In this document: piece by piece, positions 1 through 59,008 of the stretch
How positions within the stretch are numbered: the stretch's first letter is position 1
How the letters are laid out: each line of letters starts with the position of its first letter
Virus record (IMG/VR): IMGVR_UViG_3300044994_000135
Span: 1 to 59,008 of that record
Origin: a virus
Taxonomy: Duplodnaviria > Caudoviricetes
Reading direction: 5' to 3' (one strand)
DNA: 59,008 nt
Translations under genes and position numbers: made by a program
Notes under the pieces: model-generated
The model's database searches: none
The model's input: the letters and a program-made list of their open reading frames with translations, nothing else
What the model was told of the DNA's origin: nothing

Positions 1-177
1 CCTTTTCGGGCCCGTACACGTAAACGGCATAGTGCTTGACCATGCGGTTCACCGCGTTCTCGATCTCCTCGATCTTGCCCTGTACCAGCGACAGCAGCTC
101 GTCCTTCATCTCGCGGATGGTGTCGGCCCCGGCCACGGCCTTGCTGTTGGCCGCGAGCGACTGGATGCGGTTGAACC
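1..177. repeat. Terminal direct repeat, copy 1 (circular overlap with 58832-59008)
   Basis: 1-177 matches 58832-59008 except at two positions (29 A/G and 50 C/T). Confidence 0.95.
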
Positions 178-1174
178 CCACCTTGAAGAGCCACTGAATG
201 GTGAGCTCGATGGCCCGCTCGTGCCCGGTCATGTCCGCCGGCTCGATCGTGGTGACCTGGGTCCCCTGCGGGACGATCAGCGCCGCGTTATCGCCCCACG
301 TCTTGACGTCCTCGTCCCCTACCGGGCCGGAGAACACGTGCCGCTGGAACGCCGAGTGGTTGAGCTGGTTGGAGTACGCGGACATGTAGTTGAAGAGCTG
401 GAGCTGCATCTCGGCCACGCCACGCACCCACGTCTCGTCGAAGCACCCGACCACGGGCAAGTGCTCCAGCTGCGGGATCCCCCGCTCCTCGACCAGCTCC
501 CACCTTTTGCCGTCGGTGACGCCCGCGTCTTTTTGCTTGTAAATCCGCAGCGTGATCCCGCCGCCCGGGGACTTCTTGAGCACGACCGAGCGCAGCTCCA
601 GCACCGGCTTCTGGGTCAGGTCCGAGCGGCGCTGCACCTCGTGGTACTCGTACCGGATCATCTCGAACTCCTGCTCGGCGTCCTCGCGCATCTGCCAGTC
701 GCGCAGGGCCAAGGGGCTGATCGAGTAAAAGAACGCCCGGTGCCCAGCCTCGTCGGCCTTGGTGTCGCCGTTAACCTTTGGCGCGAACGTGTACACCACG
801 CACTTGCCGTAGAGGATCAGGTCCAGAAACATGGACTTCTTGACGAACTCGGTCAGGCTGTTCCCCTTGCCGTCGACACTCTTGACGTGCTCGCCGAACA
901 GGTCCTTGACCTTCTGGTCAAGCTGCGGGTCTTCCTTGAAAAAGATCCCGGTCCAAACTCCGGTGACCATCTCCATCAGGTTTAGGTAACGCGAGCGCCG
1001 CGCACGCATCCTGCGGAGTAGGTTGCCGTACTTCGGGTGATTCTCGGCGAAATGTTCGATTAGGTATTCGGGGGAGGTCAGGACCGACTGCTTGCCCTCC
1101 TGCAGGTCGCGGAAGGTTTCCCACTCGCGGCGGTTCTCGACGTATTCGGGGTGGTCGTGAAGAGCTTCCATCAT
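1..1174 (-). CDS. Portal protein, N-terminal part (continues across the circular join into 58831-58455; about 516 aa in total)
   Basis: ATG at 1174 (MMEALHDHPEYVENRREWETFRDL...) is open to position 1 and in frame with the 58455-58967 ORF. It lies between terL and the minor head gene. Confidence 0.8.
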   Translation of the reverse strand, partial: MMEALHDHPEYVENRREWETFRDLQEGKQSVLTSPEYLIEHFAENHPKYGNLLRRMRARRSRYLNLMEMVTGVWTGIFFKEDPQLDQKVKDLFGEHVKSVDGKGNSLTEFVKKSMFLDLILYGKCVVYTFAPKVNGDTKADEAGHRAFFYSISPLALRDWQMREDAEQEFEMIRYEYHEVQRRSDLTQKPVLELRSVVLKKSPGGGITLRIYKQKDAGVTDGKRWELVEERGIPQLEHLPVVGCFDETWVRGVAEMQLQLFNYMSAYSNQLNHSAFQRHVFSGPVGDEDVKTWGDNAALIVPQGTQVTTIEPADMTGHERAIELTIQWLFKVGFNRIQSLAANSKAVAGADTIREMKDELLSLVQGKIEEIENAVNRMVKHYAVYVYGPEK

Positions 1175-1193
1175 GCCGACGTCCAGAGTACCA

Positions 1194-2615
1194 CTAAAGC
1201 ACCGGGCCCGACAAAGATCCACCGCCGCCGTCAGGCTTGGTCAGGTCGAGGTGCTTGGTCATCTCGAAAACGTAGTACCGGGCGCTGTCGCCGTAGTGGG
1301 TCCAGGTGTCCTTGGGCGGCTTGTCGATGTCCCACGTGCCCTCCTTGAGGGCCGTCTTGCGGTAGCTGTCGAGTAGGTTCTTACACCGGTAGTGGACGAC
1401 ATAGAGCCCGTAATCCATGGCCTGCGCCATCTTCTCCAAGCTCTGCCGGACGCCCGGGTTGGCACGCGGGGTCTTCATGGTCACGCTCGTGAACCCCGCC
1501 GACCGCAGGTACTTCACGATCTGGTCGTAGTCGCACCCGGCGTCGGTGTTGTGCACGGGGTTATACCCGGAACGGTCTCCGTGGATCTCGATGGGCGTGT
1601 GCCGCCAAGTGTGCACGGGGAACTTCCGCGCGAACTCCATGACTGCCGCCTCCAGCCCGCGCGCCCTACCGTCGGTCTCGTCGAGCGCCACAAACCGGAA
1701 TAGCCGCTCCTGAGAGAACCTGCCGGCGTAGAACGGCTGGCGCTGGTGAACGGTCCACGCGAGCGGGGCGACATTAAAATCCCAGCAGAGGGCCAGTGGC
1801 AACTCAGGGATCGGGCGCACGTCGTCTCCAACGACGTTGCGGGACTCGTTGAAGTTCCAGTAGGCCGTGGACTTCTGGAACGGGACGAATAGCCCGTAGC
1901 GGTAACTCTGGAGCTTGGACGGGTCGTAGGAGTAGCGCTGGACGAGCGCCTCGATATAGCCGGGGGCGAGGTTATGGGCGTTGTGATCAGTAGGGACAAT
2001 AAACGCCCGGACATTGCGTTTCTCATCGAGACGGTCGTAGCCAGTGCCGGGGATGTCGGCTAGCTCGGCGTAGTGATTGATGCCCTCTGGAACTGAGTCG
2101 CCGAGGCCCTGAAGGCACTTCGCCCTCTTATCCCGAAGCCGGTCCATAATGCGGTCAAACACGTCCGCTCTCGAAGTGGCCACCTCTGACCACCGCCAAT
2201 GCGTCAGGCTGGCAGACACAAAATGCACCGGGTTGTCAGCCGAGAGGAAGCTGATCCGGTGGTTGAGCCCCATCTGCCGAAAATCGATTGAGTTTGGGGA
2301 GCTTAAACGAACGATAAAGTGCTGCTTCTCCTTCCACCCGTAAACATCTTGAGCAACCTTGAGTGTCAACTCCAGGAGGGTTTCACAGATCCGGTAATTA
2401 GGCGCAACGGTCCAAGATCTCGTTGGGTTCGGGTCCGACTTTGGCGCGCCATTATCCAGAACACGTTGGAGGTCCCAGATTTGCCCGCCGTAAGATTTCC
2501 CAGCTCCTACCCCCCCTCGAATGAAAGTCACGCGATTGGGAGTGCGATCATTCATCGCATCCCAACACCACCAAGGGACATTTATTCGACGTGCGGATTT
2601 AACACCGGCTACCAA
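1194..2615 (-). CDS. terL: Terminase large subunit
   Basis: Walker A GGVGAGKS; RNase H-like nuclease motifs (WDFN, HGDRSG, HYGDSARY); directly upstream of the portal. Confidence 0.9.
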   Translation of the reverse strand: MVAGVKSARRINVPWWCWDAMNDRTPNRVTFIRGGVGAGKSYGGQIWDLQRVLDNGAPKSDPNPTRSWTVAPNYRICETLLELTLKVAQDVYGWKEKQHFIVRLSSPNSIDFRQMGLNHRISFLSADNPVHFVSASLTHWRWSEVATSRADVFDRIMDRLRDKRAKCLQGLGDSVPEGINHYAELADIPGTGYDRLDEKRNVRAFIVPTDHNAHNLAPGYIEALVQRYSYDPSKLQSYRYGLFVPFQKSTAYWNFNESRNVVGDDVRPIPELPLALCWDFNVAPLAWTVHQRQPFYAGRFSQERLFRFVALDETDGRARGLEAAVMEFARKFPVHTWRHTPIEIHGDRSGYNPVHNTDAGCDYDQIVKYLRSAGFTSVTMKTPRANPGVRQSLEKMAQAMDYGLYVVHYRCKNLLDSYRKTALKEGTWDIDKPPKDTWTHYGDSARYYVFEMTKHLDLTKPDGGGGSLSGPVL

Positions 2616-2713
2616 ACTGGGGGGTCAACGTAGACGGGCGTGACGTACTGATTCGATGACCTTCTCTCCCGGCGCGGCCACGCGCGGCCCGATTGTCGGC
2701 TCCGCTTTCTTCT

Positions 2714-4579
2714 TCATGGTCTCATCCTCAACCGCATCACGTTACCAATCCGCCGCCGGCCGCGCCGGGGCGGCTCTCCGTCGAGCTTCAGCGGCCCCTT
2801 CGGCGCTAACGGCTCCGGGGGGGCCGGAGAAACCGCACTCACCACTGCCCGCGCCCCCGGCTCCTGAACTACGGGCGGAGTATCGCCCGACCGCTCGCTC
2901 TGCGCAATGGCCCGGCGCACGCGCCCGGCGAGCGCCCACGGCTCGGGGGTGCTGTACCGCTCAAGCCGTACCGGCGCGATGGGCTTCCCCGGCCGCACGT
3001 CCGCCCAGAACAGCCGCGCCTTCTCGATTCGACCGCCGCCCATGTCCACCCACGCCACGCCGCGCTCGTTGGCCAGGCCGTGCGTGAGGTCCTCAGGGTG
3101 CACGATCGACCGGCGGTCCTCGCTCTCCCCGTCCACGCGCGAGCGGCTGGTGAACAGCCCGGCGTTGAGGTCGATGGGCCTCGCGGCGGACATGCCCAGC
3201 CCGCGCATGGTCGCGACGGAGCGGCTGCGGCGGACGGTGTCCCGCTCCCCGAACCACCCGCTCATGTCCCTGGCCGACTGCTCGTCGCCGAGGCGTAGGG
3301 CGATCTTGGTCCCGACGTTGGCCATGACGCGCTCGAAGAACTCCTGGCTCAGGCCGCTCGCCGGGTCCTTCAGGGCCCCGGTGCTCTGAGCGCCGAACAC
3401 GAACGCGAACCGGCCCTTGCGCGAGAGCTCGAATAGGCTCGCCCAGGTCGGCCCGAACGTGCACGCGGCCTCGTCGATGAGCACGAGGTGCGGCGACTCA
3501 AGCCGGTAGCCGGCGGAGATGATCTCGCCGATGGAGACCTCGAGGTCTTCGCGGATCATCCTGACAAGGCGGGCGCTGTTCTCCGCGTCCTCCAGCCGGG
3601 GCGTCACGAGATAAACCAGCTTTCGGGCCTTGATGGCCTCGGTCATCACCAGATCGGAATGCTCCGTGCAGAGCAGTCGCCCGTAGCTGGCCGCGAGCGC
3701 GTAGAACTCCGCCGCCACCCCGCGCAGGTTGTCCTGGATGGCCTGGGTGTCGAACGCCCCACGCGGGCCGCGGTAGGTGTTGGCGAGCGCCTCCAGGTCC
3801 CGCAGGTCCTCATCCCTTTGATGGGCCAGGAGCGTTTGCCGGATGATCGGGTACGCCGTCGGGAAGCTCCCCATGGCCACCGCGAGGTCCTCGACGGTCC
3901 ACGCGAGCGGCACGGCCTCCAGGGCCCGCACCACCCGGGAGACGGCATCGTGCGCGAGGCGGTCGTAATGTTTCGAGCTGACGAAGTCGGTCGTCAGGGG
4001 CAGGGCCGTCCGCAGGGCCTTGCGGGCCTTCACCTCCGGTCGTTGTCGGACACACGGCGCGAACGGGTTGTAGCTGCCGAGCTCTGGCCGGAGCGGGTCG
4101 ATCACGATCAGGTCCTCCGTACGGCCCGTGGCCTCGGCAATGGCCCGCACCTGGGCCAGGATGTCGGCGTCCCGCTTGGCGTCGAAGAACGTGCACCCGC
4201 CGCCCTGCGCCGCCTGCTGCCAGAACAGCCCGAGCATCCACAAGGTCTTGCCGGAACCCGTAGCCCCAAGGGCGGCCAGGTGCGTGCACGCTCGCTCGTG
4301 CGAGAGCCAGAGGGGCTCGCCGGTGTCGTGGTGGTACCCAATGAGGTAATGGTCCGGGCGAAACGAGGTAACAACGGCGCACGGCGCCCCATTCCAGTCT
4401 GGTGGTCGTTCGCGTTCGAGGCGCAGGTGGCACCCGAGCTTGTAGGCCAGTATGCCGAGGAGCAGCGTGACGGGCACGAGCGCCCAGACGGTGAACACGC
4501 CCGCCAGGAATGAGGCGGCGGTCAGGTGCGCGAGGACGGCTAGCTCGCGGCGCTGGGTGTCGGCGTAGCTCGCGCGCAC
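2714..4579 (-). CDS. Type IV coupling protein-like ATPase (TraD/VirD4/DotL family) with N-terminal membrane anchor
   Basis: N-terminal hydrophobic helices; Walker A GATGSGKT; FFDAKRD...GRTEDLIVIDP...SYNPF; Walker B LIDEAA; AQS motif; ANVGTKIALRLGD. Confidence 0.85.
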   Translation of the reverse strand: MRASYADTQRRELAVLAHLTAASFLAGVFTVWALVPVTLLLGILAYKLGCHLRLERERPPDWNGAPCAVVTSFRPDHYLIGYHHDTGEPLWLSHERACTHLAALGATGSGKTLWMLGLFWQQAAQGGGCTFFDAKRDADILAQVRAIAEATGRTEDLIVIDPLRPELGSYNPFAPCVRQRPEVKARKALRTALPLTTDFVSSKHYDRLAHDAVSRVVRALEAVPLAWTVEDLAVAMGSFPTAYPIIRQTLLAHQRDEDLRDLEALANTYRGPRGAFDTQAIQDNLRGVAAEFYALAASYGRLLCTEHSDLVMTEAIKARKLVYLVTPRLEDAENSARLVRMIREDLEVSIGEIISAGYRLESPHLVLIDEAACTFGPTWASLFELSRKGRFAFVFGAQSTGALKDPASGLSQEFFERVMANVGTKIALRLGDEQSARDMSGWFGERDTVRRSRSVATMRGLGMSAARPIDLNAGLFTSRSRVDGESEDRRSIVHPEDLTHGLANERGVAWVDMGGGRIEKARLFWADVRPGKPIAPVRLERYSTPEPWALAGRVRRAIAQSERSGDTPPVVQEPGARAVVSAVSPAPPEPLAPKGPLKLDGEPPRRGRRRIGNVMRLRMRP

Positions 4580-4785
4580 AACCGCATCCCAAACGATTCG
4601 AGTCTGATCGTAAACTCCTCGTGCCCCGCGAGCTCAGCCGCCAGCCGCTCACGGATGCCCTGGTCCGGGGTCGGCAAGAACAGCTCGCTCTGGGGTTGCC
4701 GGTGCCTCCACGCGAGCAGCGCGTAGCGCTTGAAGCTCTGGAAATACGTCTCGCTGTCGGGGAATGGGGCGTTCGCTACCGTCAT
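4540..4785 (-). CDS. Hypothetical protein
   Basis: 81 aa ORF overlapping both neighbours in an operon-like run. Confidence 0.5.
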   Translation of the reverse strand: MTVANAPFPDSETYFQSFKRYALLAWRHRQPQSELFLPTPDQGIRERLAAELAGHEEFTIRLESFGMRLCARATPTPSAAS

Positions 4786-4997
4786 TCGCCCTCTTCACCA
4801 GAACTCGCCGATGCCTCGGAAAATCCCGCCGAAGGCGTGTCCTTTTGGTCGAGACATTGGCCACGCTGGATCGCGGCCACGCAGTCGTTGAGCACGCGCC
4901 CGAGGTCGCCATAGCGGTACATCTGCTCGCTCACCGTGAACGAAACGACGGATTCACCGGTGGCGTTGTTGCGGAGGGTGAGGGTGTAGGTGGTCAT
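4782..4997 (-). CDS. Hypothetical protein
   Basis: 71 aa ORF with ATGA-type overlaps on both sides. Confidence 0.55.
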   Translation of the reverse strand: MTTYTLTLRNNATGESVVSFTVSEQMYRYGDLGRVLNDCVAAIQRGQCLDQKDTPSAGFSEASASSGEEGE

Positions 4998-5230
4998 TCA
5001 ACCTCTCTAAGTTGATCTTCAAGCGGGATCTCGCCATCGACAGGGATCGGACACCACGCATACAGGCCCGTTTTGGCTTCTGCTGGAAGAAACCCGTTTT
5101 CTGTTGTCCATGAGGCTATGGCGATCGTGCTTTTCCCGTCAAAGCTAGTTTGCCGGACAAGGAACAGGCCGAGTCGGCACTGCGGGACAGAATCGGGGAA
5201 CTTGCGCCAGTAGCACTCCGTGGTGGCCAT
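4994..5230 (-). CDS. Hypothetical protein
   Basis: ATG at 5230 (MATTECYWRKFP...) follows the methyltransferase; its stop overlaps the next start. Confidence 0.5.
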   Translation of the reverse strand: MATTECYWRKFPDSVPQCRLGLFLVRQTSFDGKSTIAIASWTTENGFLPAEAKTGLYAWCPIPVDGEIPLEDQLREVE

Positions 5231-5270
5231 GCCCCGCAGATTCTCACGCCCGGCGCGGGGGCGCAAGGGG

Positions 5271-5936
5271 TCAAAAAGGGAGGACGCTTTGTGCCATTCG
5301 GCGGGCTGCGATCTCGCAATAGCGTTCTTCGCGTTCAATCCCAATAGCCTTCCTCCCTAAATCCTTAGCGGCGCGCAATGTTGTTCCTGACCCCATAAAG
5401 GGGTCGATGATCGTGTTCTGTTTTGATTTGAGTTTTATGTCTGCCTGCTGGATACACCACCGCATTACTTCAACTGGTTTCTGCGTTGGGTGATATCGTG
5501 TCTGCTTTATGCGCTGCAACATTCCATTCCACATAAACCGTATCAAGCGAATAGCCCCTGGAAGCGTGGTCCAAGCAATCTCAGCATCTGCGAAGTCTCC
5601 AGAGTTTTCTTTATCCCATATCAGCCAACATTGGTTCTGAGGGAGGATATCCGTGTAATAGTTCCCCCCAAACAGAATACAGTTCCTCCCAGCGCGCAGT
5701 ACCAGGGAAAGTAAATTGTCGTCAATTCGCTCATTGTCCCAAGTAGCCACTGCATAATCTTTTGGAAGAGCCGCGGATCTGCGACTCTTATTCTTTCCAG
5801 CCGCTTCGCCAATGCCATATGGAGGATCAGTAAGTACAAGATCAACGTCCCTGATAGTAGGCAAAATCTCCTGACAATCTCCGTGGTAGATTAAAACTGA
5901 CTCATCTTGAAAGTACGGCCTGGCTACCATGTCCAT
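5271..5936 (-). CDS. N6-adenine/N4-cytosine DNA methyltransferase (beta class)
   Basis: TDPPY catalytic motif, HPTQKP and DPFMGSGTT SAM-binding motif; visibly more AT-rich than its flanks. Confidence 0.92.
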   Translation of the reverse strand: MDMVARPYFQDESVLIYHGDCQEILPTIRDVDLVLTDPPYGIGEAAGKNKSRRSAALPKDYAVATWDNERIDDNLLSLVLRAGRNCILFGGNYYTDILPQNQCWLIWDKENSGDFADAEIAWTTLPGAIRLIRFMWNGMLQRIKQTRYHPTQKPVEVMRWCIQQADIKLKSKQNTIIDPFMGSGTTLRAAKDLGRKAIGIEREERYCEIAARRMAQSVLPF

Positions 5937-6026
5937 GAAAGTGACATCTTGTTGCTAGGGGCGCAAGAACTATTTGCCGAACGCCGTTTAACGCAACAGC
6001 TCTAGATTACTCGTCAGGGCCGCGCG

Positions 6027-6464
6027 TCAGTGCTCCGTCGCCAGGCCGCCCTCGGCGTCCTCGGCGTCCTGCTCGTGCGGCGCGGGCTCGCGGACGAAGT
6101 ACACCTGCGTCGGCTTCGGCGCGTCGGGGTCTTCCATCTCGTTGGACTTGAGCCACTTGAGTTTGGCGATCTGGTCGTCGTACTTCTCGCGGTTGAGAGC
6201 CTTTAGTGAGAAGATGGCCGCCATCAGGTTCTCGGCGTGGGCGTACCCGAGCACCTGCTCGAAGAGGTCCTCCTCGATCTGCTTGTATGCCTCCTCGAAC
6301 GCCTCGGCGAACTTGGCGTCCTTCTCCCGCCAGTCGTAGACCGTGCGGCGGCTGACGCCACACAACTGACAGGCGCGGGACACGTTGCCACGGCGCTCGA
6401 CAAACGCTTTCAAGAACAGTTCTTGCTTGTCTCGGTTTCTAGGATTTGGTAATCTTTTCGGCAC
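6027..6464 (-). CDS. Terminase small subunit-like HTH protein
   Basis: HTH segment FLKAFVERRGNVSRACQLCGVSRRTVYDWREKDAKFAEAFEEA, followed by AAIFSLK...REKY, typical of TerS. Confidence 0.75.
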   Translation of the reverse strand: MPKRLPNPRNRDKQELFLKAFVERRGNVSRACQLCGVSRRTVYDWREKDAKFAEAFEEAYKQIEEDLFEQVLGYAHAENLMAAIFSLKALNREKYDDQIAKLKWLKSNEMEDPDAPKPTQVYFVREPAPHEQDAEDAEGGLATEH

Positions 6465-6500
6465 TTTTTATACGCTGTGCATTTTAGGCGGTTAAGTTCA

Positions 6501-6728
6501 CTACTGCATTTGCGACTTGAGCACCGCCTCTTTGGCGAGCTCGGTGGTGGCGTTGGCCTGCTTGACGGCCTGGTCAGCAAGCCGCTGGATCTGCGCGGCG
6601 GTAATGCCAACGGCGGTGGCCAGGGCCATGATTTGCGTGTCGTGCCTCTGGAGTTTGCGCCAGATGAGCCACTCGAGCACGGCCACGGCCACGACGGCGA
6701 CAACTGCGACAGTCAGCACAATATCCAT
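6501..6728 (-). CDS. Small membrane/coiled-coil protein
   Basis: N-terminal hydrophobic helix followed by a heptad-like tail. Confidence 0.6.
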   Translation of the reverse strand: MDIVLTVAVVAVVAVAVLEWLIWRKLQRHDTQIMALATAVGITAAQIQRLADQAVKQANATTELAKEAVLKSQMQ

Positions 6729-6732
6729 ACTG

Positions 6733-7089
6733 CTAGTCTGCCCGATCCAGCCCTGCCGGGCAACAGCCGAGCCCTGCGAGGATGCGCCAGCGGAGCCACT
6801 TCGGGCGGTGCGGGCTCAAAACGTGGCAGATCCAGAAAAAGCTCATGGGCTCCGAGGCGTCGTCGTACTCGGCGAAGAAGTCCCTGGCCGACTCGTAGTC
6901 CTCGTTCAGCAACGGGGATCCGGGCTTGGGCCCGCGCAGGTAGTCGCGGCACGCCACCCGCAGCACACTGGCCGCGAGCTGCGTGCACGCCGCCGTTTGT
7001 GGGTCGTACTGGTGGTCGGCAGTCTCAAAGAGCTGCGGGGCGTCCCACGCCTCTCCTTGGTGGGCGTCGTCCTCGAACCAGTCATCCAT
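6733..7089 (-). CDS. Hypothetical helical protein (resembles 14457-14828)
   Basis: ORF coupled to the VRR-NUC gene; pattern AASVLRVACRDY...ARDFF...SFFWICHVL. Confidence 0.6.
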   Translation of the reverse strand: MDDWFEDDAHQGEAWDAPQLFETADHQYDPQTAACTQLAASVLRVACRDYLRGPKPGSPLLNEDYESARDFFAEYDDASEPMSFFWICHVLSPHRPKWLRWRILAGLGCCPAGLDRAD

Positions 7090-7525
7090 ACTGCCTCAGG
7101 GCCTCCGGGACGGCGACGCCGAGGTAGTCGCACACCGCCGCCCATGCGGACTCTGCCGAGGTGTGGACCTCGACCCGGTGGCCGCAGGAGCGGGCGAGCT
7201 CCATAAACTCGACTTGGTTGGGCCGAGGCTTTTCGCCTTGGCGCTTGAACTCGATGAAAAAGCCGTGGAACTGTTTGGTGGGGTAGAACATGTGCCAGTC
7301 GCTCGCCCCCCACCGGCACCCCTCAGCGCCGAAACGCACCTGCCGCTGGATGCGCGGCCCGACGGCCTGGTTTGGAATGGCGTAGTGGCACTTCTGGGCG
7401 GCGGGATGGGGGATGTGTTGCAGGCCGGAGATGAACCTCGCCTGGATGCTGTGCTCACTCGGCTGATTCGCCTTGCGATAGGACGGCTTGGCGGAACGTG
7501 CGGCGCGGGCTCTGTGACGGGTCAC
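7082..7525 (-). CDS. VRR-NUC domain nuclease
   Basis: EHSIQ...AIPN...GASD...FIEFK...PRPNQVEF, the PD-(D/E)xK pattern of VRR-NUC. Confidence 0.82.
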   Translation of the reverse strand: MTRHRARAARSAKPSYRKANQPSEHSIQARFISGLQHIPHPAAQKCHYAIPNQAVGPRIQRQVRFGAEGCRWGASDWHMFYPTKQFHGFFIEFKRQGEKPRPNQVEFMELARSCGHRVEVHTSAESAWAAVCDYLGVAVPEALRQYG

Positions 7526-7557
7526 CTACCGGGAGAGTGTGTCACGCCCGGCGGCGT

Positions 7558-7839
7558 TCACGCAAGGGGCCTCCAGTGGGTTATACGGTGCAGATTGACT
7601 GTACAGGCAACCTCGCCGTCTCGGATTACGACCCAATCCCCGTGTTGGGAGAGAACACCCTCGCCGATGGGCCTTACGCATGTAGAAGACCCCTTCATAC
7701 CCTCTGCGATAAAAACCCGGGAGTAAAAACCCGGGAGTCTGTCGTTTACCTGTATCCAGCCGTCAGAGTCATCCGTCTCTGCCGCGACGCTGACGGTCCG
7801 GTCGAGGGGTTTGGGTGGCGTGGGGGTAGTTTGGATCAT
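7558..7839 (-). CDS. DUF551-like phage protein
   Basis: GWIQVNDRLP near the N-terminus and ITHWRPL at the C-terminus. Confidence 0.65.
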   Translation of the reverse strand: MIQTTPTPPKPLDRTVSVAAETDDSDGWIQVNDRLPGFYSRVFIAEGMKGSSTCVRPIGEGVLSQHGDWVVIRDGEVACTVNLHRITHWRPLA

Positions 7840-7881
7840 ACCGCCGATGGTACCAGCCTCAGGTCTGTGGCGCAAGGGCCT

Positions 7882-7967
7882 CACGCCGCCCGCGCGTCCA
7901 GCAACCACGCCGCCCGCGCGTCCAGCAACCACGCCGCCAGGGCGTCCAGCAACCACGCCGCCAGGGC
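7882..7967. repeat. 24-bp tandem repeat, about 3.5 copies
   Basis: CACGCCGCC(C/A)G(C/G)GCGTCCAGCAAC at 7882, 7906 and 7930, partial at 7954. Confidence 0.9.
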
Positions 7968-8114
7968 CGCCTTGCGCTAGTCCGTGGCCGCGTGGGTGGG
8001 TTCAATTGCTTCGTCGGCCAGGCAGTATCGTCGCAGGACGGCGTCGCAGGACGGCGTGTCGGGTGTCGTTCAGGAGTTGGCGGAGGGTGCGGCGGCGGTC
8101 GGGGCGGGCGGTGT

Positions 8115-8170
8115 CCATGGCCTGCAGGACGCCATGGCCTGCAGGACGCCATGGCCTGCAGGACGCCATG
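8115..8170. repeat. 17-bp tandem repeat, about 3.3 copies
   Basis: CCATGGCCTGCAGGACG at 8115, 8132 and 8149. Confidence 0.9.
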
Positions 8171-8240
8171 CTCGGCGGCGGGGCGGTAGTAGCGCAATCG
8201 TATTACCACGAGGATCAAATACCGTTTCTTGAGGAGGAGG

Positions 8241-8642
8241 GGGGGTACAGTACGGTAACTTTTTCTATAAAATTTTTTCTCGGTCAGGATCATGGTAAGG
8301 ATCTGCCTATGGTAAGGATTATCCTTACCATAATCCTTACCAAGCCTTGCGTGAAAAGTGTATAAAATATAATGATATCAACTAGTTATCCCGATCCTTA
8401 CCATAATTCTTGCCTTACCAAGCAAAAAATCAGTAAAAAAAGTTACCGTACTGTACCCCCATTGGTCGAACGCCGTTTGGCTATCTTGGTAAGGATCCGG
8501 GCACAAAATGCCCCTCTGACACACATCTTGGTAAGGATCCGGGCACAAAGCGACCCCACTTGGTAAGGATCCGGGCACAAAGCGACCCCACTTGGTAAGG
8601 ATTTGGGGTTCGATTCTGTCGGTTTTAGAGCGTGGTAAGGAT
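8241..8642. promoter_or_regulatory. Putative replication origin with iterons
   Basis: TGGTAAGGAT direct at 8293, 8310, 8487, 8529, 8561, 8593, 8633 and inverted at 8321, 8333, 8394; AT-rich core; 24-bp inverted repeat; adjacent to the primase-helicase gene. Confidence 0.75.
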
Positions 8643-8670
8643 CCTAGCCCTCCGTCAGTTGGCTCTTTGA

Positions 8671-8759
8671 GAGCCGTTGGCGGCTGTTAAATGTTCGGGA
8701 GCCGTTGGCGGCTGTTAAATGTTCGGGAGCCGTTGGCGGCTGTTAAATGTTCGGGAGCC
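8671..8759. repeat. 28-bp tandem repeat, 3 copies, overlapping the primase stop codon
   Basis: GAGCCGTTGGCGGCTGTTAAATGTTCGG at 8671, 8699 and 8727. Confidence 0.9.
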
Positions 8760-11088
8760 CGTCGTGGCCGTCGCTGTGATCCGCCCGCTCCGCCCGCATG
8801 GAGTCCATGTCGACCACCACGTGCGAGAACCCCACAAGTCTTTGGTCGATTTGCCGGACCTTGCGGTGTGCCCGCCCTTTGAGCTGCGAGCCGAACTCCT
8901 GCACGAAGTCTTGGCGCTTCATGGGTCGTGAGTGCGCGTCTTCGCAATACTTCACGTAGTCCCGGAACAGCTTGTCGATAGTGACGCTCTGCCCGTCGTC
9001 TGGCACGACGCGCACGTGCTCCGAGATGAACCCGCTCACGGTGTTGAGGGACTCTTGGATGTCCTGGATGGCCTCTAGTCCGCGCTTGGCCTGCCGGAAG
9101 CGTTCGCCGCCGATGATGGCCCGCGCCCCCTCCAACGCCCAGTTGAGGACGCCCGACATCTCGGCCAGCAGTGAGCCCAGAAGGTTCGGGTCTTCCTGGC
9201 CCACGAATGACCGTTTGAACGGGAACACCAACATGCGGTTGGTGAGCGCGCTGCGCGAGTTCACCAGCTCCGGGAACTCGTTGCAGATGAACACGATCTT
9301 CAGCGGCAGGAACAGGTTGAGCGCGTCTTGATTCTTTCGGTCGATCTGCTGCGGGTCATTGCCCACGATGGAGATGATGCGCTCGCAGGCCGTTTGAGCC
9401 TCCCTGCTCTTGCTCTGCACGTCGTTGAAGATGGCCAGCCGCTTGCCCAGGACGGGCTCTAGGCCGAATCGTTCGCCGAAGAGGGCCAGGGAGCACGCGG
9501 CGGTGTTATCGTGGCCTATCAGGGCCTCCAGGACCCGCGCAAGGGTACTTTTGCCCGAGCGGGACTCCCCGATGAGCACGGCGAACTTTTGCGCGCGCAT
9601 GTCATTGAGGAGGCAGTACCCGGCCCACAAGCGAAATTGGTGGACAAGCTCCTTGTCCCCTTCCCAGATCTGCTCAAGGAACGCCTCGAACCTCGGGCAG
9701 GTGGCGTTCGGATCGTAGTCGAACGGCAACGTTGTGAAGTTGAAGTAATCCGGCGTATGGTCCAAGAGTTCGCCCGTCGCCAGGTCGAGCAGCCCACTCC
9801 GCAAGCTGACGATTTGGGCGGGCGTGCCGTCGCGCCACATCCCCGGTCGAATGTTGGGCGTCCGCCCTTCGAGCCGGGTGCGGACGAGCTGCACCATGCT
9901 GGTGAGGTGCTGGAGTTTGACCTTGGAGAGCGTGACCCCGGCGTCACTGGCCTCGATGTCCCGCATGATGACGGCCATGAACTCCTTTTCGCGGATTGGT
10001 TGCCAGCATCGAGCGTGGTCGCTGTAGACGTAAAGTTGGCTTTTGTCACAAAGCACTCGCCCGGCCTGGCGCTCGATGAACAGGTCCGTGCACGGCAGCG
10101 GTCTCTTGAGATCGTAGAATTTCTGACGCAATTCGGGCTCGACCACGGCGTCGGCGGCCACTACGGGGAATCCGGCGGCGGCGCTCTTGGAACCGAAATC
10201 ACCCTTCCCGTACCGGTAAGCGTTCTCGACCTTGCGGCGGAGCTCGCTCTCGTGCCACGGCGGCGAGCATCGCGGGTTGTAGACCTCCCTGAGGGCTGTC
10301 ACGGCCTGGTCGAACGAGAGGCCGAAATCGCGGCAGAGGCACGCCGCTCGAAAGGTCGTGGCGTCCCCGCTCTGACCCTGAACGGCTCTGGGGAAGGCGT
10401 TGGAGAGAATTTCACGCACGCGGACTACGTCCACCAAGGGGGCTTCAATCCCTTCTATGAGATTCATACCATCGACGGATGGTGTGGCTAGCGGCGGCGG
10501 GGCCTTGCCCATTAGTTCCTGGACCAGCCACGCCGGGAGCTCGTCGGCTTCACCGGCGAGGACGTCTAGCAGGCTTAATCCATTATCGAATCGGTACTGG
10601 TCGCCGTAGCGGTGTACGCTCGGCCAGGTGACCACCTGGTGCCCGCCGTCGGCCAGGATATCCACACCCTTAACGAACCCCACGCGGGAGGGCAGGTTGT
10701 CCATGTCCTTGGGGTATCGGAACCACAAATGCATACTTTTGTCGCCGCGACGCTCAGTGACGTGGTACCCGAGGCCGTCTTGGTGCTCCTGGTACCAAGC
10801 GAGCCCGCGGTCGCCGTCGAGGTCCACGCACACCACACCCGACGCCCGGCCAGTAATAACGCCGAGGTTGCATTTGTGGTTTTTGGGCTTGCCCATGATC
10901 TCGGCGAACTCTTCGGCTGAGTGGCGGAGTTTCTGCCAGCCCATGATCTTGGGGGCCTTGCCCGCGCCCGGTCCGCCGGATGTGGGTGAGCTGACGACCA
11001 CGACGGCCATACCTGCGGCGATGTACTGGAGGCCAACGGAGAGGGGTGTCGCGTTTTCGATGTGGGCGGCGGGCGATGAGCTATCCAT
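8743..11088 (-). CDS. Primase-polymerase / D5-like SF3 helicase (P4-type primase)
   Basis: N-terminal Prim-Pol motifs (NLGVITG...VDLD, HLWF); primase C-terminal region (CSPPWHESEL); D5_N segment (GLLDLATGELLDHTPDY); Walker A GESRSGKST. Confidence 0.9.
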   Translation of the reverse strand: MDSSSPAAHIENATPLSVGLQYIAAGMAVVVVSSPTSGGPGAGKAPKIMGWQKLRHSAEEFAEIMGKPKNHKCNLGVITGRASGVVCVDLDGDRGLAWYQEHQDGLGYHVTERRGDKSMHLWFRYPKDMDNLPSRVGFVKGVDILADGGHQVVTWPSVHRYGDQYRFDNGLSLLDVLAGEADELPAWLVQELMGKAPPPLATPSVDGMNLIEGIEAPLVDVVRVREILSNAFPRAVQGQSGDATTFRAACLCRDFGLSFDQAVTALREVYNPRCSPPWHESELRRKVENAYRYGKGDFGSKSAAAGFPVVAADAVVEPELRQKFYDLKRPLPCTDLFIERQAGRVLCDKSQLYVYSDHARCWQPIREKEFMAVIMRDIEASDAGVTLSKVKLQHLTSMVQLVRTRLEGRTPNIRPGMWRDGTPAQIVSLRSGLLDLATGELLDHTPDYFNFTTLPFDYDPNATCPRFEAFLEQIWEGDKELVHQFRLWAGYCLLNDMRAQKFAVLIGESRSGKSTLARVLEALIGHDNTAACSLALFGERFGLEPVLGKRLAIFNDVQSKSREAQTACERIISIVGNDPQQIDRKNQDALNLFLPLKIVFICNEFPELVNSRSALTNRMLVFPFKRSFVGQEDPNLLGSLLAEMSGVLNWALEGARAIIGGERFRQAKRGLEAIQDIQESLNTVSGFISEHVRVVPDDGQSVTIDKLFRDYVKYCEDAHSRPMKRQDFVQEFGSQLKGRAHRKVRQIDQRLVGFSHVVVDMDSMRAERADHSDGHDGLPNI

Positions 11089-18648: not shown

Positions 18649-20082
18649 ATGAGAACAATCATTGTCCTTCTTGCCACTATCACCGCAGTCCACGCCCAGC
18701 CCGTCACCCCAATCCGGGTGAGCAGCCTGGCCGACAGCGGGCCGGGGTCGCTCAGGGCGTGCGTCGAAGCCTCCGGCGGGGCACGGGCGTGCGTGTTCGA
18801 GGTCTCCGGGCGCATCCGCCTGCAGTCGTCTCTCAGGCTGACGCGGCCCGAAACGCACATCCTCGGCCAGACCGCGCCGTCGCCGGGCGTGCTGCTCACT
18901 AATGCCGGAGTGGCCGTTGAGGCCGACGGCTGCTCGGTTGAGCACGTTGCGATCCGGCCAGGGGATGGGCCCAGCGCGCAGAAGCCCGGCGAAAGGGACG
19001 CGCTGAAGGTGCTCGCCGACGACGTGCGGGTGCGGGGCGTGTCGCTATCCTGGGCCACCGACGAGAACCTCTCCGTCTACGGCGAGCGCGTGACCGTCAC
19101 CGACAGTATTATCGCCGAGGGCCTCCACCGCTCGATTCACCCCGAGGGGCAGCACAGCATGGGGGCGCTCGTCGGCGAGCGGTCGCGGCGGGTGGTGTTT
19201 CAGCGGAATGTGCTCATGTCGAACAGGGACCGGCACGTGCGGTGGAAATCCAACACCTCCGGGGCGATGGTCAATAACGTCGTTTATAACTGGGGCGGCG
19301 GCACTTCTGGCTGGAACGTCAACAACGTCACTGCTGCGTCAACGGACCTGCCGATTTTGCAGGATTTTGTCGGTAACGTGTACCTGCCCGGGCCGGATAC
19401 GCTCTCGCGTAACGCGGGCGGCTTTTACGCCGACAAGGGCGTCACCGCGCTTGGCTCGTGGTTTTTTATCCGCGACAATTTGACCCCGACCAGGCCCACG
19501 GGGGCAGAGCCCGAGTGGGCGGTTGCGAACGTCGCGCAGAGCGTTCACGGGGTTCCGGTGCCGCTGTTCGAGGGCCACTACCCGTTGCCGCTAACCCCGG
19601 CGACCGAGGCTCTGAGCGCGGCAGTCAGGCACGCGGGCGCGAGGCCCTGGGACCGCTCACTGGTTGACCTGCGGTTGCTCGGCGAGCTTGTCGGTCGTGC
19701 CGGTCGGATCCCGGACTGCGTTGAGGTCTGTGCCTCGCCAGATTTGCGGCGGGTGCCCGAGGGCGGCTACCCGGCCGTGGCTGAGAACTTCCGGCCACTG
19801 GGGGCGCTGCCGGAGGTGTTCGCCGACGTGGCCGCGATGCGGCAGTGGGCGGCGGGGTTTGAGGGGGGCTTGACGGGGCCGGTGCCCACGCCCACCATTT
19901 TCCTGACGCCAGGAAATAGCCCGACGCCGACCAGGACGCCGACGCCTAGGTCAACGAAAACGCCGACGCCGACCAGGACGCCGACGCCTAGGTCAACGTG
20001 CACGCCGACACCGACCAGGACGCCGACGCCGACGCCGACGCCGACGCTGAGAATGTGCTGGCTGCCGTGTCCGCCGCCCTAG
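18649..20082 (+). CDS. Secreted pectate lyase-like (PL1-type beta-helix) protein with Pro/Thr-rich tail
   Basis: Signal peptide MRTIIVLLATITAVHA; LADSGPGSLR, VFEVSGRI, GQTAPSPG, SLSWATDE and NNVVYNWG; C-terminal PT repeats. Confidence 0.85.
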   Translation: MRTIIVLLATITAVHAQPVTPIRVSSLADSGPGSLRACVEASGGARACVFEVSGRIRLQSSLRLTRPETHILGQTAPSPGVLLTNAGVAVEADGCSVEHVAIRPGDGPSAQKPGERDALKVLADDVRVRGVSLSWATDENLSVYGERVTVTDSIIAEGLHRSIHPEGQHSMGALVGERSRRVVFQRNVLMSNRDRHVRWKSNTSGAMVNNVVYNWGGGTSGWNVNNVTAASTDLPILQDFVGNVYLPGPDTLSRNAGGFYADKGVTALGSWFFIRDNLTPTRPTGAEPEWAVANVAQSVHGVPVPLFEGHYPLPLTPATEALSAAVRHAGARPWDRSLVDLRLLGELVGRAGRIPDCVEVCASPDLRRVPEGGYPAVAENFRPLGALPEVFADVAAMRQWAAGFEGGLTGPVPTPTIFLTPGNSPTPTRTPTPRSTKTPTPTRTPTPRSTCTPTPTRTPTPTPTPTLRMCWLPCPPP

Positions 20083-23160: not shown

Positions 23161-23201
23161 GCGTTTCGAGAATATCGTCTAAATAATTCTCACTTTGGTC
23201 T

Positions 23202-23927
23202 ATGCAGGATTACCTCGTCAAGGACACCCACGCGCTCGTCCAGCAACTGGCGATGCGGCTGCTCAACCACGGGTACCACTTCTATTCCACCTCCTGGATC
23301 CCGGAGAGCAAGGACCCGCGCGCCGTCGACGTGAAGTTACTGCTCCGCTACGGCGGCTACCTGAGCAAGTTCGCCGTCCACCGGCGGCACAAGCAGCACG
23401 GTGCCGCGAAGGTGCGTTACTTGCGGTGCGGGCGGCTGGTGGTGCTGGTCGCCACCGCGGGGGGCTCCCCATTTTGGGACTGCGAGGGCAGGAACATCCG
23501 CGACGCCCGCGAGAGCCCGCTGCACGTCGCGGGCTACGCCCTCTCCCCCACGAGGGTGCGGCTCCACCGCGAGGTCTACAACCGCCTGGCGCGGCAGTAC
23601 CTCGACGGGTGGGCCGTCCGCCGGTCGGCGGCGTGGCTCGAAGAGAAGCTCCGCGCGCTGCCGTTCGACCCGGGGTACGCCGGGGTGCGGGCGCAGGTGG
23701 TGACCCTGGCCCGCGCGCTGAACGTCCGCCGCAAGGCCGCCCGCCTGCCCCCGGTCGCCATCGAGAACTGTTTCCGCACCAAGCGGCTCGCGCCACGCAA
23801 GGTCTACCTGCCGATCCCGGACGACGTGCGGCAGGCCGTTGAGCTATACGCGCCGACGCGCTACTCTCGGGATAGCTCCGACGAAACGGAAGCGAGCTCT
23901 GCTGGGAAGCAACTCGCCGAGGGATAG
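23202..23927 (+). CDS. Conserved hypothetical protein of mobile elements (Planctomycete-type from recall)
   Basis: LVQQLA...HGYHFY...IPESKDPRAVDVKLL...VRYLR; Arg-rich, probably DNA-binding. Confidence 0.7.
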   Translation: MQDYLVKDTHALVQQLAMRLLNHGYHFYSTSWIPESKDPRAVDVKLLLRYGGYLSKFAVHRRHKQHGAAKVRYLRCGRLVVLVATAGGSPFWDCEGRNIRDARESPLHVAGYALSPTRVRLHREVYNRLARQYLDGWAVRRSAAWLEEKLRALPFDPGYAGVRAQVVTLARALNVRRKAARLPPVAIENCFRTKRLAPRKVYLPIPDDVRQAVELYAPTRYSRDSSDETEASSAGKQLAEG

Positions 23928-24254
23928 TCGGGGCCGAGTGACGGTGAAGAGCTTTTAGACTTTGAGGAGTTTAAGGAGCCCGCACACTGCAAGGCCGGTC
24001 CTTCCGTGTGCGGGGGCTCACCTCACCAGAACTCTCCGGATGCCTCAAAAAATCCCTCTTGTGTAGTTTCGGTTGCTCTTTACATCCTCGTTGCGAGTAG
24101 AAGAAAAGTTTTTATCGTCGTCCCCGCCTTTCGCCCGTGCCGTGCCTCTCGGTGCGCGTCAGGGCCGAGGGGCGGATGACGCCTGAAAGGTTTTTACAAC
24201 CGGCAGATTGCCGCCCCTCGGTCCCCGTTACCCAACGCGCCGAGGAGGTGCAAA

Positions 24255-25630: not shown

Positions 25631-25653
25631 CGACTTCTGACGACTTCTGACGA
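25624..25653. repeat. 10-bp tandem repeat, 3 copies, over a stop codon
   Basis: CTTCTGACGA at 25624, 25634 and 25644. Confidence 0.85.
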
Positions 25654-32619: not shown

Positions 32620-33639
32620 TCAGCTCACCACCTGCTGCGCAACATCTCGCATGTGTTTTACCCGCTCTTGCAACTGCGAATAGTGCCTCATAACCATGTC
32701 CGTGCTGGTGTGCCCGACCAGCTCGGCCACCTTAACCGCGTCCACGCCCCGTTCCAGGGCGTCGGTGACGTAGGCCCGGCGGTAGCTCGTGGCGGTGAAG
32801 TGGCCGAGCTCCGGGAACTTCTTGCGGAGGTTGCGGAACCGGATGCGGATGGAGTTGCGGTTCCAGGGGCTCCCGCGACTGTTGAGGAACAGCGGCCCGT
32901 CGGGGTGAGCGCGGACCAGCTCGCGGGTGATCTCCAGCATCCCGGCGGTGAGGTACACCACGCGGGGCTTGCCGGTCTTGTTGGCGGTCTTGTGCTTCGG
33001 GAGCGTCCACGTCCCTTGCGTGAGATCGACGTGCTCAGCGGTGAGGACACACAACTCCCCGGGCCGACACCCGGTCTGTTCGAGCGCCGTCAGGACGAGC
33101 TGAAAAGCCGTGTCCTTGATGGCCTTGAAGATCTTGCCCCGCTCATCCACCGTCAAGTATGCGAGCACACGGTTAGGAGCGGGGACGTCGATCCCGTGAA
33201 TGGGGTTACGCTGGAGTTTCCGTCGCTTAACCGCCCAGTTGAACATTCGCAGGAGAGAGCGGAGGGCGTGCCGCCGGGAGCGCTTCCAGGAGGGGTTCTC
33301 TTCCACCCACGATTCGACCAGTTCGATCGTGATGCGATGGGGCGGTGTTTCGCGGACTCGCTTGTATCCGAGGAACGACCGCAGAAAGTGCCGGACTTGA
33401 TCGTAGGTTTGAGCTTCGCGGTGTTTCTTGAGCCAGGCCAGGTACTCCGCCGCGAGGCAGCCGGTAGTGCCCTTCGACTCTTCGTCTGGAACGTGCCGCT
33501 CGGCCATGAGCCGGTGGTACTCTCTCTCGGCAGCGGGCTTGTTGTCGCGTCCCCGAGCGAGCGGCGTCTGCACGCCGTCGATCCAAACGCACCAGGTGTC
33601 CCGAGCCGTCCAGAACCAGGGCTTGCGAGGTCGGGCCAT
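32620..33639 (-). CDS. int: Tyrosine recombinase / integrase
   Basis: TGCRPGE, HKT, SYRR (HxxR-like), LVGHT and RHY; N-terminal arm-binding-like MARPRKPWFW. Confidence 0.92.
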   Translation of the reverse strand: MARPRKPWFWTARDTWCVWIDGVQTPLARGRDNKPAAEREYHRLMAERHVPDEESKGTTGCLAAEYLAWLKKHREAQTYDQVRHFLRSFLGYKRVRETPPHRITIELVESWVEENPSWKRSRRHALRSLLRMFNWAVKRRKLQRNPIHGIDVPAPNRVLAYLTVDERGKIFKAIKDTAFQLVLTALEQTGCRPGELCVLTAEHVDLTQGTWTLPKHKTANKTGKPRVVYLTAGMLEITRELVRAHPDGPLFLNSRGSPWNRNSIRIRFRNLRKKFPELGHFTATSYRRAYVTDALERGVDAVKVAELVGHTSTDMVMRHYSQLQERVKHMRDVAQQVVS

Positions 33640-57752: not shown

Positions 57753-58558
57753 CAGGATGGATCGGCCTCCGCGTTTCGCTCTGTCATGATCTCGTCTGCC
57801 AACTCGTCCGAAATGGGCCGCCAGTGGTGGCGGCAGTTGTACCCGCCGCCGTAGACCTCGACCGGTAGGCCCTGGCCGTTGTCCATCGCGCGGATCTCTT
57901 CGAGTGAGTATACCCGATCCACGTGCTCGGCGCAAAACGGGCGGGTCCGCTCGTCGTCCGGGCCGACGTACAGGAACTTGGTGATCCCGGCTTTCTCGGC
58001 CTTCTTGATGTGCGTGAGCCGCTGGAACGCCATCCCGGCTGTGTTGAGCTCGGTCTTCACGTGCCGGAACGCGGCGTCGCCCAGGTTGTCGATGATGGCG
58101 TCCGGGTCCGGGCGCTTTCCGAGCACTACCGAATCCAGCACCGCCGACCGCACGTCGCCGAGGTAGTTCCGAATGGTGCGGGAGGCCATATCCAGGCGGT
58201 CATCGGCCAGCGCCTCGAGGCTCCTCCTGGCGAACCCGCCGAGCGGGGCTTTCAGCCCGGTGGTGTCGGTGAACTCGCCGGCGGCGATGAGGAACCTCCC
58301 GGCGAGCACCTCGCGGATGCCCCCAAGCCGCTCCGCCGCTGCGGTCGACGAGAGCGCCTCGTCCAGGTCCGCCAGTGCGCGCGCGGCCTCACGCACGGTG
58401 GCCTCCGTGGGGATGTCCCGCACGCTGCGTCGCACGTACCGTTCAACGAACCGCCTAAGCGCCTCGACCAGCCGGTCCACCTGGCCCTCGGCCAGCGCGA
58501 GCTGGTCTTTCGCCCTGCGGTTCAGCCGACTGACTATCCTGCTGCCCCTGTCCGCCAT
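57752..58558 (-). CDS. Minor head protein (MuF/SPP1 gp7-like)
   Basis: DERTRPFC and GGYNCRH motifs; downstream of the portal. Confidence 0.78.
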   Translation of the reverse strand: MADRGSRIVSRLNRRAKDQLALAEGQVDRLVEALRRFVERYVRRSVRDIPTEATVREAARALADLDEALSSTAAAERLGGIREVLAGRFLIAAGEFTDTTGLKAPLGGFARRSLEALADDRLDMASRTIRNYLGDVRSAVLDSVVLGKRPDPDAIIDNLGDAAFRHVKTELNTAGMAFQRLTHIKKAEKAGITKFLYVGPDDERTRPFCAEHVDRVYSLEEIRAMDNGQGLPVEVYGGGYNCRHHWRPISDELADEIMTERNAEADPS

Positions 58559-59008
58559 CTTCCTCTAGTGCCGACATCAGCGCGCCGTTTGGCCCGACCG
58601 TGACCTCCGGACGAGCCGGCTCGTCCGGAAGAGCTTCGATGTCTTTCAGGATCCGCTCCTCGTCCTTGTCCGGGAGGTCCATCTTCTGGGCGAACTTCTT
58701 GAGGACGGCCTTGCGCCAGCTCGGGATCTCGTCAATGTCCCGCCGAACAAGGGTAACCATCTCGATGAGCTGCTCCACGTCCTCGATCGACACATCGCGG
58801 GAGAACGTCACCCTGCCGTCGAACTTCGCGCCCTTTTCGGGCCCGTACACGTAAACGGCGTAGTGCTTGACCATGCGGTTTACCGCGTTCTCGATCTCCT
58901 CGATCTTGCCCTGTACCAGCGACAGCAGCTCGTCCTTCATCTCGCGGATGGTGTCGGCCCCGGCCACGGCCTTGCTGTTGGCCGCGAGCGACTGGATGCG
59001 GTTGAACC
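58455..59008 (-). CDS. Portal protein, C-terminal part
   Basis: In frame with 1174-1 across the terminal repeat. Confidence 0.78.
   Translation of the reverse strand, partial: FNRIQSLAANSKAVAGADTIREMKDELLSLVQGKIEEIENAVNRMVKHYAVYVYGPEKGAKFDGRVTFSRDVSIEDVEQLIEMVTLVRRDIDEIPSWRKAVLKKFAQKMDLPDKDEERILKDIEALPDEPARPEVTVGPNGALMSALEEDGGQGQQDSQSAEPQGERPARAGRGPGGPAGRGA
58832..59008. repeat. Terminal direct repeat, copy 2
   Basis: Matches 1-177 with two substitutions. Confidence 0.95.

Follow-up and report, generated by a model that had tools for sequence, protein, structure and literature searches.

Why does a tailed phage carry the gene of a conjugation-type ATPase between the genes for the two subunits of its terminase? 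The gene, P0001, encodes 621 amino acids (aa) at 2714..4579 on the minus strand of the IMG/VR virus record IMGVR_UViG_3300044994_000135 (Duplodnaviria; Caudoviricetes). The window that we analysed is this whole record of 59,008 bases. An earlier, sequence-only reading had proposed that P0001 is a conjugative coupling protein belonging to the phage backbone. We found that P0001 belongs, as an orphan, to a distinct family of type IV coupling proteins (T4CPs) and is carried by a tailed phage with a relaxase module, and this is what is new here.

The reading frame of P0001 was intact and its coding signal was strong, with a GC content of 0.89 at third codon positions (GC3) vs 0.51 at second positions (GC2). 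The GTG start gave an N-terminus that aligned with the conserved start of the family in a 21-sequence alignment (A1). A hydrophobic membrane anchor was predicted at residues ~13–52 (4424..4543, minus strand): the Kyte–Doolittle score exceeded 1.6 in 19-residue windows beginning at residues 13–34, and the AlphaFold2 (AF2) model placed two N-terminal helices at residues 2–26 and 31–57. Walker A (GATGSGKT; residues 105–112; 4244..4267, minus strand) and Walker B (LVLIDE; residues 365–370; 3470..3487, minus strand) were both present, with T107, G108, G110, K111 and T112 of the former and V366, D369 and E370 of the latter invariant in A1. Between them, six helices in the AF2 model formed an all-alpha domain inserted in the nucleotide-binding domain (residues ~181–302; 3674..4039, minus strand). 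The protein ended in a proline-rich basic tail that was predicted to be disordered (residues 568–621; 2717..2878, minus strand; pLDDT <50). Its 54 residues included 11 K+R, 4 D+E and 12 P, and it terminated in a family-conserved basic motif, in which G612 was invariant and V614 nearly invariant in A1. The AF2 model, built on the family alignment, showed a RecA-like core at moderate confidence (pLDDT 67.4, pTM 0.63). P0001 retained every invariant column of A1, suggesting that it is under selection.

Profile searches and structural comparison both pointed to a coupling protein. P0001 passed the Pfam cut-offs for TrwB_AAD_bind (25.8 bits, cut-off 20.5) and TraG-D_C (26.1 bits, cut-off 22), both marginally, and stayed far below the curated whole-protein NCBIfam cut-offs (TrbC_conju 57.8/800, SXT_TraD 52.2/366, conj_TOL_TraD 26.3/647.55). 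Its sole significant PDB sequence match was DotL/IcmO (PDB 6sz9, 7ovb), at 5.4e-14 with the single sequence; the 21-sequence family profile again matched DotL alone among the PDB sequences (7.7e-18). DotL was also the top Foldseek match of the P0001 model (4.9e-11), followed by more than 25 TrwB chains (2e-8 to 1.5e-6; TM 0.62–0.68 normalised by target), Cag-beta (2.6e-7) and then HerA (1.9e-6) and VirB4 (1.3e-3). A HerA/FtsK-type or VirB4 identity was not supported, as HerA ranked below the more than 25 T4CP chains and P0001 had no Pfam FtsK or HerA match. With its membrane anchor, Walker motifs and all-alpha insert, P0001 is very probably a T4CP. The sequence-only reading had described an intact ORF of 621 aa with N-terminal transmembrane helices and Walker A/B motifs, as the frame, hydrophobicity and motifs confirmed, and had assigned it to the TraD/VirD4/DotL type. 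That assignment agreed with the Pfam cut-offs, the DotL match in the PDB and the Foldseek order, and P0001 did not group with HerA/FtsK or VirB4.

DotL, a T4CP anchored in the membrane, recruits adaptors through its C-terminal extension. The Legionella Dot/Icm protein, although the best match of P0001 by both sequence and fold, shared only 16% identity with it in the structural alignment, and its long adaptor-binding region contrasts with the short 54-residue tail of P0001. No DotM-like partner was found, and the partner of the Bdellovibrionota relatives, described below, had no PDB fold match. TrwB of plasmid R388 (PDB 1e9s, 1gki), the archetypal conjugative T4CP, resembled P0001 in fold and shared the above-cut-off TrwB_AAD_bind domain, whereas neither phmmer nor the family profile gave a sequence match between the two. 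Moreover, TrwB is encoded beside the relaxase TrwC, and in the phage that place is held by another protein, P0327.

To which family does P0001 belong? A word-indexed search found 248 homologs at E ≤ 1e-3 among 8000 scored candidates, with the closest non-self match at E 5e-187. Among the homologs listed, one was identical, P0008 (605 aa) was 58% identical, and the others, mostly ~650–750 aa long, were 40–52% identical over 72–99% of the protein. An exhaustive search of cluster representatives gave 1097 matches at E ≤ 1e-3 and 38 at E ≤ 1e-30. Ten more distant representatives all had sub-threshold matches to the SXT TraD and TrbC models, and most of them also matched the TOL TraD or CD1115-type coupling-protein models. 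A 47-row tree, inferred by a fast search that raised warnings on composition and long branches, grouped P0001 with P0008 (SH-aLRT 100). The pair stood at the base of a clade of 26 rows (SH-aLRT 100), among them all 20 Bdellovibrionota-type rows and four rows picked as distant. A genome scan with one genome per species then yielded 89 P0001 relatives, of which 80 loci were kept (L001–L080). The relatives came mostly from metagenome-assembled genomes of Bdellovibrionota, Bdellovibrionales or 'Deltaproteobacteria', the nearest family being ~45% identical to P0001.

The Bdellovibrionota-type loci had a recurrent organization. A conserved membrane protein of 560–690 aa (the ~690-aa partner) was encoded directly upstream of the T4CP in 75 of the 80 loci. 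Four of the remaining five had no upstream DNA; the fifth, cyanobacterial locus L050, had 4 kb of it and lacked the partner. Clustering of the flanking ORFs revealed further conserved neighbour families in 36–52 of the 80 loci, and these families were TraE, TraK_C, TrbI/F-type TraB and F-type TraC/VirB4, as annotated from one example per family. A TraC homolog was present elsewhere in two of three genomes checked, and in these two the T4CP–partner pair was not beside the genes for a type IV secretion system (T4SS). None of the 80 loci had a relative of the phage terL, portal, terS or methylase. As judged by these neighbourhoods, the P0001 family is a T4SS-associated coupling-protein family, and, as far as literature searches show, the Bdellovibrionota-type T4CPs appear to be unstudied.

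The bacterial proteins, annotated 'TraM recognition domain-containing protein', shared with P0001 the Walker motifs, the all-alpha region, the C-terminal basic motif and the same well-supported clade. They differed in being ~700 aa long, with a longer N-terminal linker that carries a conserved motif absent from P0001 and P0008, and in having the partner and often TraE/TraK/TraB/TraC as neighbours, whereas the phage copy had neither. We also observed that the Bdellovibrionota-type T4CP was unusually well conserved (mean column identity 65%) and that its cluster combined a divergent F-like T4SS (TraE, TraK, TraB, TraC) with the partner and the T4CP, for example at L004:576-6267 and L008:7578-11779. 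The Bdellovibrionota partner itself had no Pfam, NCBIfam or PDB sequence match and no Foldseek match at E ≤ 0.001. A DotM-like or relaxase-like nature of this partner was considered and rejected, as there was no family or fold match and it was unrelated to the 677-aa ORF of the window.

Among plasmids in PLSDB, the only close matches to P0001 were four Leptolyngbya boryana megaplasmid records at 48% identity (WP_017291638.1, pLBX). The next matches, annotated as TraG or T4SS DNA-binding proteins, were 26% identical. The pLBX homolog was 63–68% identical to its best-matching Bdellovibrionota-type loci, and no TraC was found on pLBX. The cyanobacterial copies, in locus L050 and on pLBX, were also orphans. 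On this 505-kb linear plasmid, the orphan gene was divergent to a protelomerase gene (L150:11658-15725).

We then examined the phage locus. The minus-strand order was terS, a methyltransferase gene, three small ORFs (A, B and C), the T4CP gene, a gap of 98 nucleotides (nt), terL, portal, and head and tail genes to about 38 kb. The small terminase subunit (6027..6464, minus strand) was of the helix-turn-helix (HTH) type and matched phrog_4044 (5.2e-15) and, below the cut-off, Pfam Sf6_terminase (4.6e-5); its homologs stood directly before terL in loci L081, L082 and L096 of the related phages treated below. The large subunit (1194..2615, minus strand) started with TTG at 2615 and was recognized by phrog_10250 (1.2e-9) and by tblastn matches to annotated terminase large subunits. 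Its 51 homologs were mostly ~436–475 aa long, and those of at least 40% identity covered mostly 90–99% of the query. The record's own gene call for terL was 359 aa (P0276), vs 473 aa for the frame from TTG 2615, which fitted most of the closer homologs. The portal gene was split by the ends of the window: its C-terminal part (1..1222, minus strand; phrog_145, 1.9e-34) continued from the window end in an N-terminal part (58455..59008, minus strand), and the pieces, which were adjacent in relatives, joined into a 1776-nt frame whose only stop is terminal. Because this frame runs across the window ends, the genome is circular or circularly permuted.

About 1.45 kb separated the T4CP gene from terS, filled by the methylase gene and the three small ORFs. 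The methylase (5271..5936, minus strand), an N6/N4 DNA methyltransferase in a polymorphic cassette, matched Pfam N6_N4_Mtase (1.6e-24) and phrog_67 (1.2e-46), and its GC content was 0.48 vs 0.65 for the whole genome. ORF A (4994..5230, minus strand) encoded 78 aa from an ATG at 5230 and was polymorphic, the variant joint 4993->5226 removing it in the minor haplotype. ORF B (4782..4997, minus strand; 71 aa) overlapped its neighbours by 4 nt on each side and lay on the constant side of that joint. ORF C (4540..4785, minus strand; 81 aa; GC3 0.84) overlapped the T4CP start by 40 nt; neither ORF B nor ORF C matched a Pfam or PADLOC family. The ESM Atlas model of ORF C resembled R3H single-stranded nucleic-acid-binding folds (TM 0.62–0.76 by query), a lead that falls below our bar for naming a family. 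A predicted complex of the T4CP (A1) and ORF C scored 0.01 (mark 0.32), a result that counts neither for nor against contact. On the other side, a putative micro-ORF of 30 codons, read from the sequence (2625..2717, minus strand), began with an ATG overlapping the T4CP stop (ATGA) and ended 9 nt before the terL start; it could bridge the 98-nt gap and restore translational coupling to terL after an insertion. No promoter was predicted in 1000–9000, and the only three terminator-like sites there were weak and fewer than in shuffled sequence. The gene had been described as co-oriented with terS and terL and overlap-coupled between them. The orientation proved correct, as the T4CP, terS, terL and portal genes all lie on the minus strand, whereas the coupling did not hold: ORF C is the sole overlapping neighbour on the terS side, and neither terminase gene touches P0001.

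Is P0001 part of the phage backbone? An alignment of the 51 terL homologs (E ≤ 1e-10) was used to collect 18 metagenome loci and 51 IMG/VR loci, two sets that have at least seven contigs in common and are not independent. These loci shared the terL–portal–head–tail order with the window. A T4CP-like gene, meaning a relative of either phage T4CP at E ≤ 1e-4, was found in 0 of the 18 metagenome and 0 of the 51 IMG/VR loci. Where a terS homolog was detected, it usually abutted terL (L081, L082, L096; L099, L101, L125, L145), and a small HTH-type ORF ended no more than ~35 nt from the terL match in L082, L088, L089, L093, L094, L096, L097 and L098. There were exceptions: one ORF lay between the genes in L090, two small opposite-strand ORFs in L091, 1.6 kb of uncharacterised ORFs in L102 and a methylase-like piece in L144, and an uncharacterised insert was also noted in L101. 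In addition, methylase homologs occurred 0.06–0.5 kb upstream of terL in 7 of the 51 IMG/VR loci. These exceptions and methylase homologs indicated that the terS–terL junction is variable and tolerates inserts. In L083–L087 and L103–L106, terL began 350–620 bases from the contig end, which may reflect either a terminus of the genome or an assembly break that recurs immediately upstream of terL.

Thus, an accessory island of ~3.4 kb, P0001 included, interrupts a terS–terL junction that is normally tight, and therefore we consider P0001, with good confidence, to be cargo rather than a component of the packaging machinery or the phage backbone. The sequence-only reading had seen a backbone gene and not a passenger, and had suggested looking for terS–T4CP–terL synteny in viral databases; the related loci did not support either, having no T4CP and a terS that usually abuts terL.

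Reads from two runs showed how the island varies in the population. A 10,086-base contig carrying the T4CP, terL and portal genes covered window positions 1–4993 in both runs, at depths of 31.9 and 54. The assembly branched at 4993, with a methylase-bearing contig at depths of 21.8 and 33.6 and a variant form at 10.7 and 13.5 that skipped 4994–5225 and 5258–5957 (joints 4993->5226 and 5257->5958). The methylase/ORF A cassette was therefore missing from a minor haplotype with ~30% of the depth. By our reading, the variant would fuse the start codon of ORF A with the first part of ORF B in a single frame. Since the variant joints remove only the methylase/ORF A side, ORF B, ORF C and the T4CP gene form the constant part of the island. 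A separate minor variant replaced 239 bases by 236 others at 7211–7451 (depths 9.5 and 17.2), inside or beside a VRR-NUC-like ORF (7082–7525).

Relatives of P0001 were rare among phages. P0001 had no PHROG family; a collection of 50,697 phage records gave one match, covering 12% of the protein; and an IMG/VR scan with the T4CP alignment gave 17 pattern matches, none of them a relative. These searches were specific to P0001 rather than based on a general T4CP profile, and they say nothing on T4CPs as a class in phages. Keyword searches of the literature, supplements outside, returned no paper on a T4CP inside a phage packaging operon.

The phage has a second conjugation-related region. The TrwC-type relaxase P0328 (28357..30039, plus strand; Pfam TrwC 5.4e-10) was ~24 kb from P0001, a distance that agreed with the earlier description of P0001 as far from the relaxase block. 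It was followed by its own T4CP-like ATPase, P0327 (30036..31736, plus strand), which matched Pfam TrwB_AAD_bind (8e-19), TraG-D_C (8.1e-14) and T4SS-DNA_transf (8e-6) and, judged by eye, had no obvious N-terminal hydrophobic segment. Neither P0328 nor P0327 had a PHROG family, and P0327 had no match in the phage collection. A BLASTP comparison of P0001 with P0327 gave E 0.63, meaning no detectable pairwise similarity. A tyrosine integrase gene (32620..33639, minus strand; Pfam Phage_integrase 3.4e-19) lay in the same region, and the block at 24–36 kb looks, from its gene content, like an integrative mobilizable element (IME). Within window positions 23200–36000 we noted a DUF932 protein, the TrwC relaxase, the T4CP-like ATPase, the tyrosine integrase and an SLT transglycosylase. 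The GC content of the relaxase and second T4CP genes was 0.69–0.72. A shared compositional origin with P0001 (GC 0.70) was considered and dropped, because the GC3 of P0001, 0.89, is within the range of the structural genes.

Elsewhere, the genome encoded replication proteins at 8.7–14.3 kb (a primase-polymerase/D5 helicase, an SNF2 helicase, an Enc34-type single-stranded DNA-binding protein and a DUF2800 nuclease) and a sigma-factor-like protein at 21.8–22.5 kb. The early region also encoded a 477-aa protein (18649–20082, plus strand) whose PHROG match carries a pectate lyase annotation (1.6e-26). No tRNA gene was detected.

What might such a gene do for the phage? The best overall explanation, to which we give slightly less than even confidence, is that P0001 is an accessory orphan T4CP, carried as cargo, that probably hitches onto a T4SS; for the hitching function taken by itself, which rests on analogy, our confidence is somewhat lower. 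P0001 would be co-transcribed with the packaging (late) genes, because neither a promoter nor a convincing terminator was predicted. It would insert in the membrane as an ATPase and dock onto a resident host T4SS of matching F-like type, where it would couple phage proteins, or phage DNA on which the phage's own TrwC relaxase has acted, to the host conjugation channel. The sequence-only reading had likewise suggested that the genome is routed to a host or helper T4SS, which is still a plausible idea. Having two unrelated T4CPs could allow the phage to use two kinds of helper. Such behaviour has a functional analogue in mobilizable elements such as CloDF13 (as cited in PMC11389934), which bring their own coupling protein and use a helper T4SS. 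The phage resembles these elements in being non-conjugative and having its own relaxase and coupling protein. It differs from them in being a tailed phage rather than a plasmid or IME and in having the gene in its packaging operon, and transfer is here a proposal. Mobilizable plasmids and IMEs likewise carry their own coupling proteins and thereby have a wider range of helpers. In the most far-reaching form of the idea, the phage would have two exit routes: P0001 and the TrwC relaxase would together pass phage DNA, once replicated, to a resident F-like T4SS, so that the phage would spread to mat neighbours by conjugation as well as by virions, with the second T4CP serving a second helper type. 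We consider this form unlikely.

Several points weigh against a hitching accessory T4CP. There is no T4SS in the genome, no oriT was identified in it, and the ~690-aa partner is absent from the window (tblastn best E 0.004; a profile comparison gave no relation to the 677-aa ORF at 26064–28097); many family relatives stand beside TraE/TraK/TraB/TraC. A matching host T4SS is only assumed. The relaxase already has P0327 adjacent to it, which leaves no evident need for P0001, and no link was seen between P0001 and that distant relaxase. The placement in a late packaging operon would be unusual for a transfer function expressed in lysogeny. As to the cargo assignment, the absence test covers distant relatives only (terL identity ≤49%) and leaves out the closer TerL homologs P0277 (65%), P0278 (56%) and P0283 (56%) as well as the contig of P0008, the protein closest to P0001 after the identical one. 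Finally, the contiguity of the T4CP and terL genes was seen in two runs of one sample, which is possibly the source of the record itself.

A coupling protein without its partner could also work against a T4SS. As interference or defence cargo, P0001 would be a decoy or poison subunit that blocks a resident T4SS, for example stopping rival conjugative elements or shutting down a pilus receptor, or it would be a defence-type ATPase. The gene stands next to a polymorphic DNA methylase in an island of variable cargo, a typical site of defence and counter-defence genes, and this fits the explanation, as does the lack of the partner that accompanies nearly all of its relatives. P0001 also matched PADLOC mad8 (PDLC04140; 7e-10, 36.9 bits, residues 86–442), and a passage of PMC13662399 describes MAD7/MAD8 as an ATPase–nuclease module required for defence. 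However, a T4SS-linked Bdellovibrionota homolog matched mad8 equally well (4e-11), indicating that the match reflects shared ATPase ancestry and is not diagnostic. MADS is described in a source passage as an eight-gene operon, mad1–mad8, whereas a PADLOC scan of ten window or locus proteins found no other mad gene: apart from P0001, the mad8 match of the Bdellovibrionota homolog was the only one obtained. Furthermore, the methylase cassette comes and goes independently of the T4CP gene, and P0001 keeps both Walker motifs as well as the C-terminal motif, which a simple decoy would not need. We regard interference or defence as rather unlikely.

The location of P0001 also invites a role in packaging, in which a late membrane ATPase would tether or assist the terminase or handle concatemer ends at the membrane. 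The shared orientation with terS and terL, the stretch free of predicted promoters with its weak terminator-like sites, and the T4CP stop overlapping a micro-ORF that ends close to terL are consistent with this role, and the 48%-identical pLBX orphan adjoins the gene of another DNA-end enzyme, the protelomerase. Yet the related phages that share these packaging and head genes lack a T4CP and have a terS that abuts terL, the searches of PHROG, IMG/VR and the phage collection gave no family, no relatives and a single partial match, and homologs with seen surroundings, the cyanobacterial orphans excepted, follow the partner gene and are often beside T4SS genes. These results made a packaging role very improbable, and the membrane tether for packaging that the sequence-only reading had suggested found no support. 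Could the gene then be a functionless passenger that was acquired from a T4SS locus of a host and is simply carried? That P0001 is an orphan with neither partner nor T4SS, unique among the related phages examined, would agree with this. But the frame is intact with a GC3 of 0.89, all family-invariant residues are kept at only ~45% identity, and the gene has undiminished depth in the population, whereas the cargo next to it is polymorphic. Its divergence together with P0008 as a separate clade (SH-aLRT 100) implies long-term maintenance. We therefore consider a functionless passenger improbable as well, and retain the accessory T4CP that probably hitches onto a T4SS as the preferred explanation.

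Coupling proteins decide what a conjugation channel exports. If P0001 were interference cargo only, it would be a modest addition to phage morons; conjugative exit of a phage genome, if true, would be highly interesting. A phage with a T4CP, a relaxase and a second T4CP would blur the distinction between viral and conjugative spread, and it would offer a concrete system in which to ask if host T4SSs are open to phage genomes. P0001 also exposes, in the Bdellovibrionota, a well-conserved and apparently unstudied T4CP family with its ~690-aa partner.

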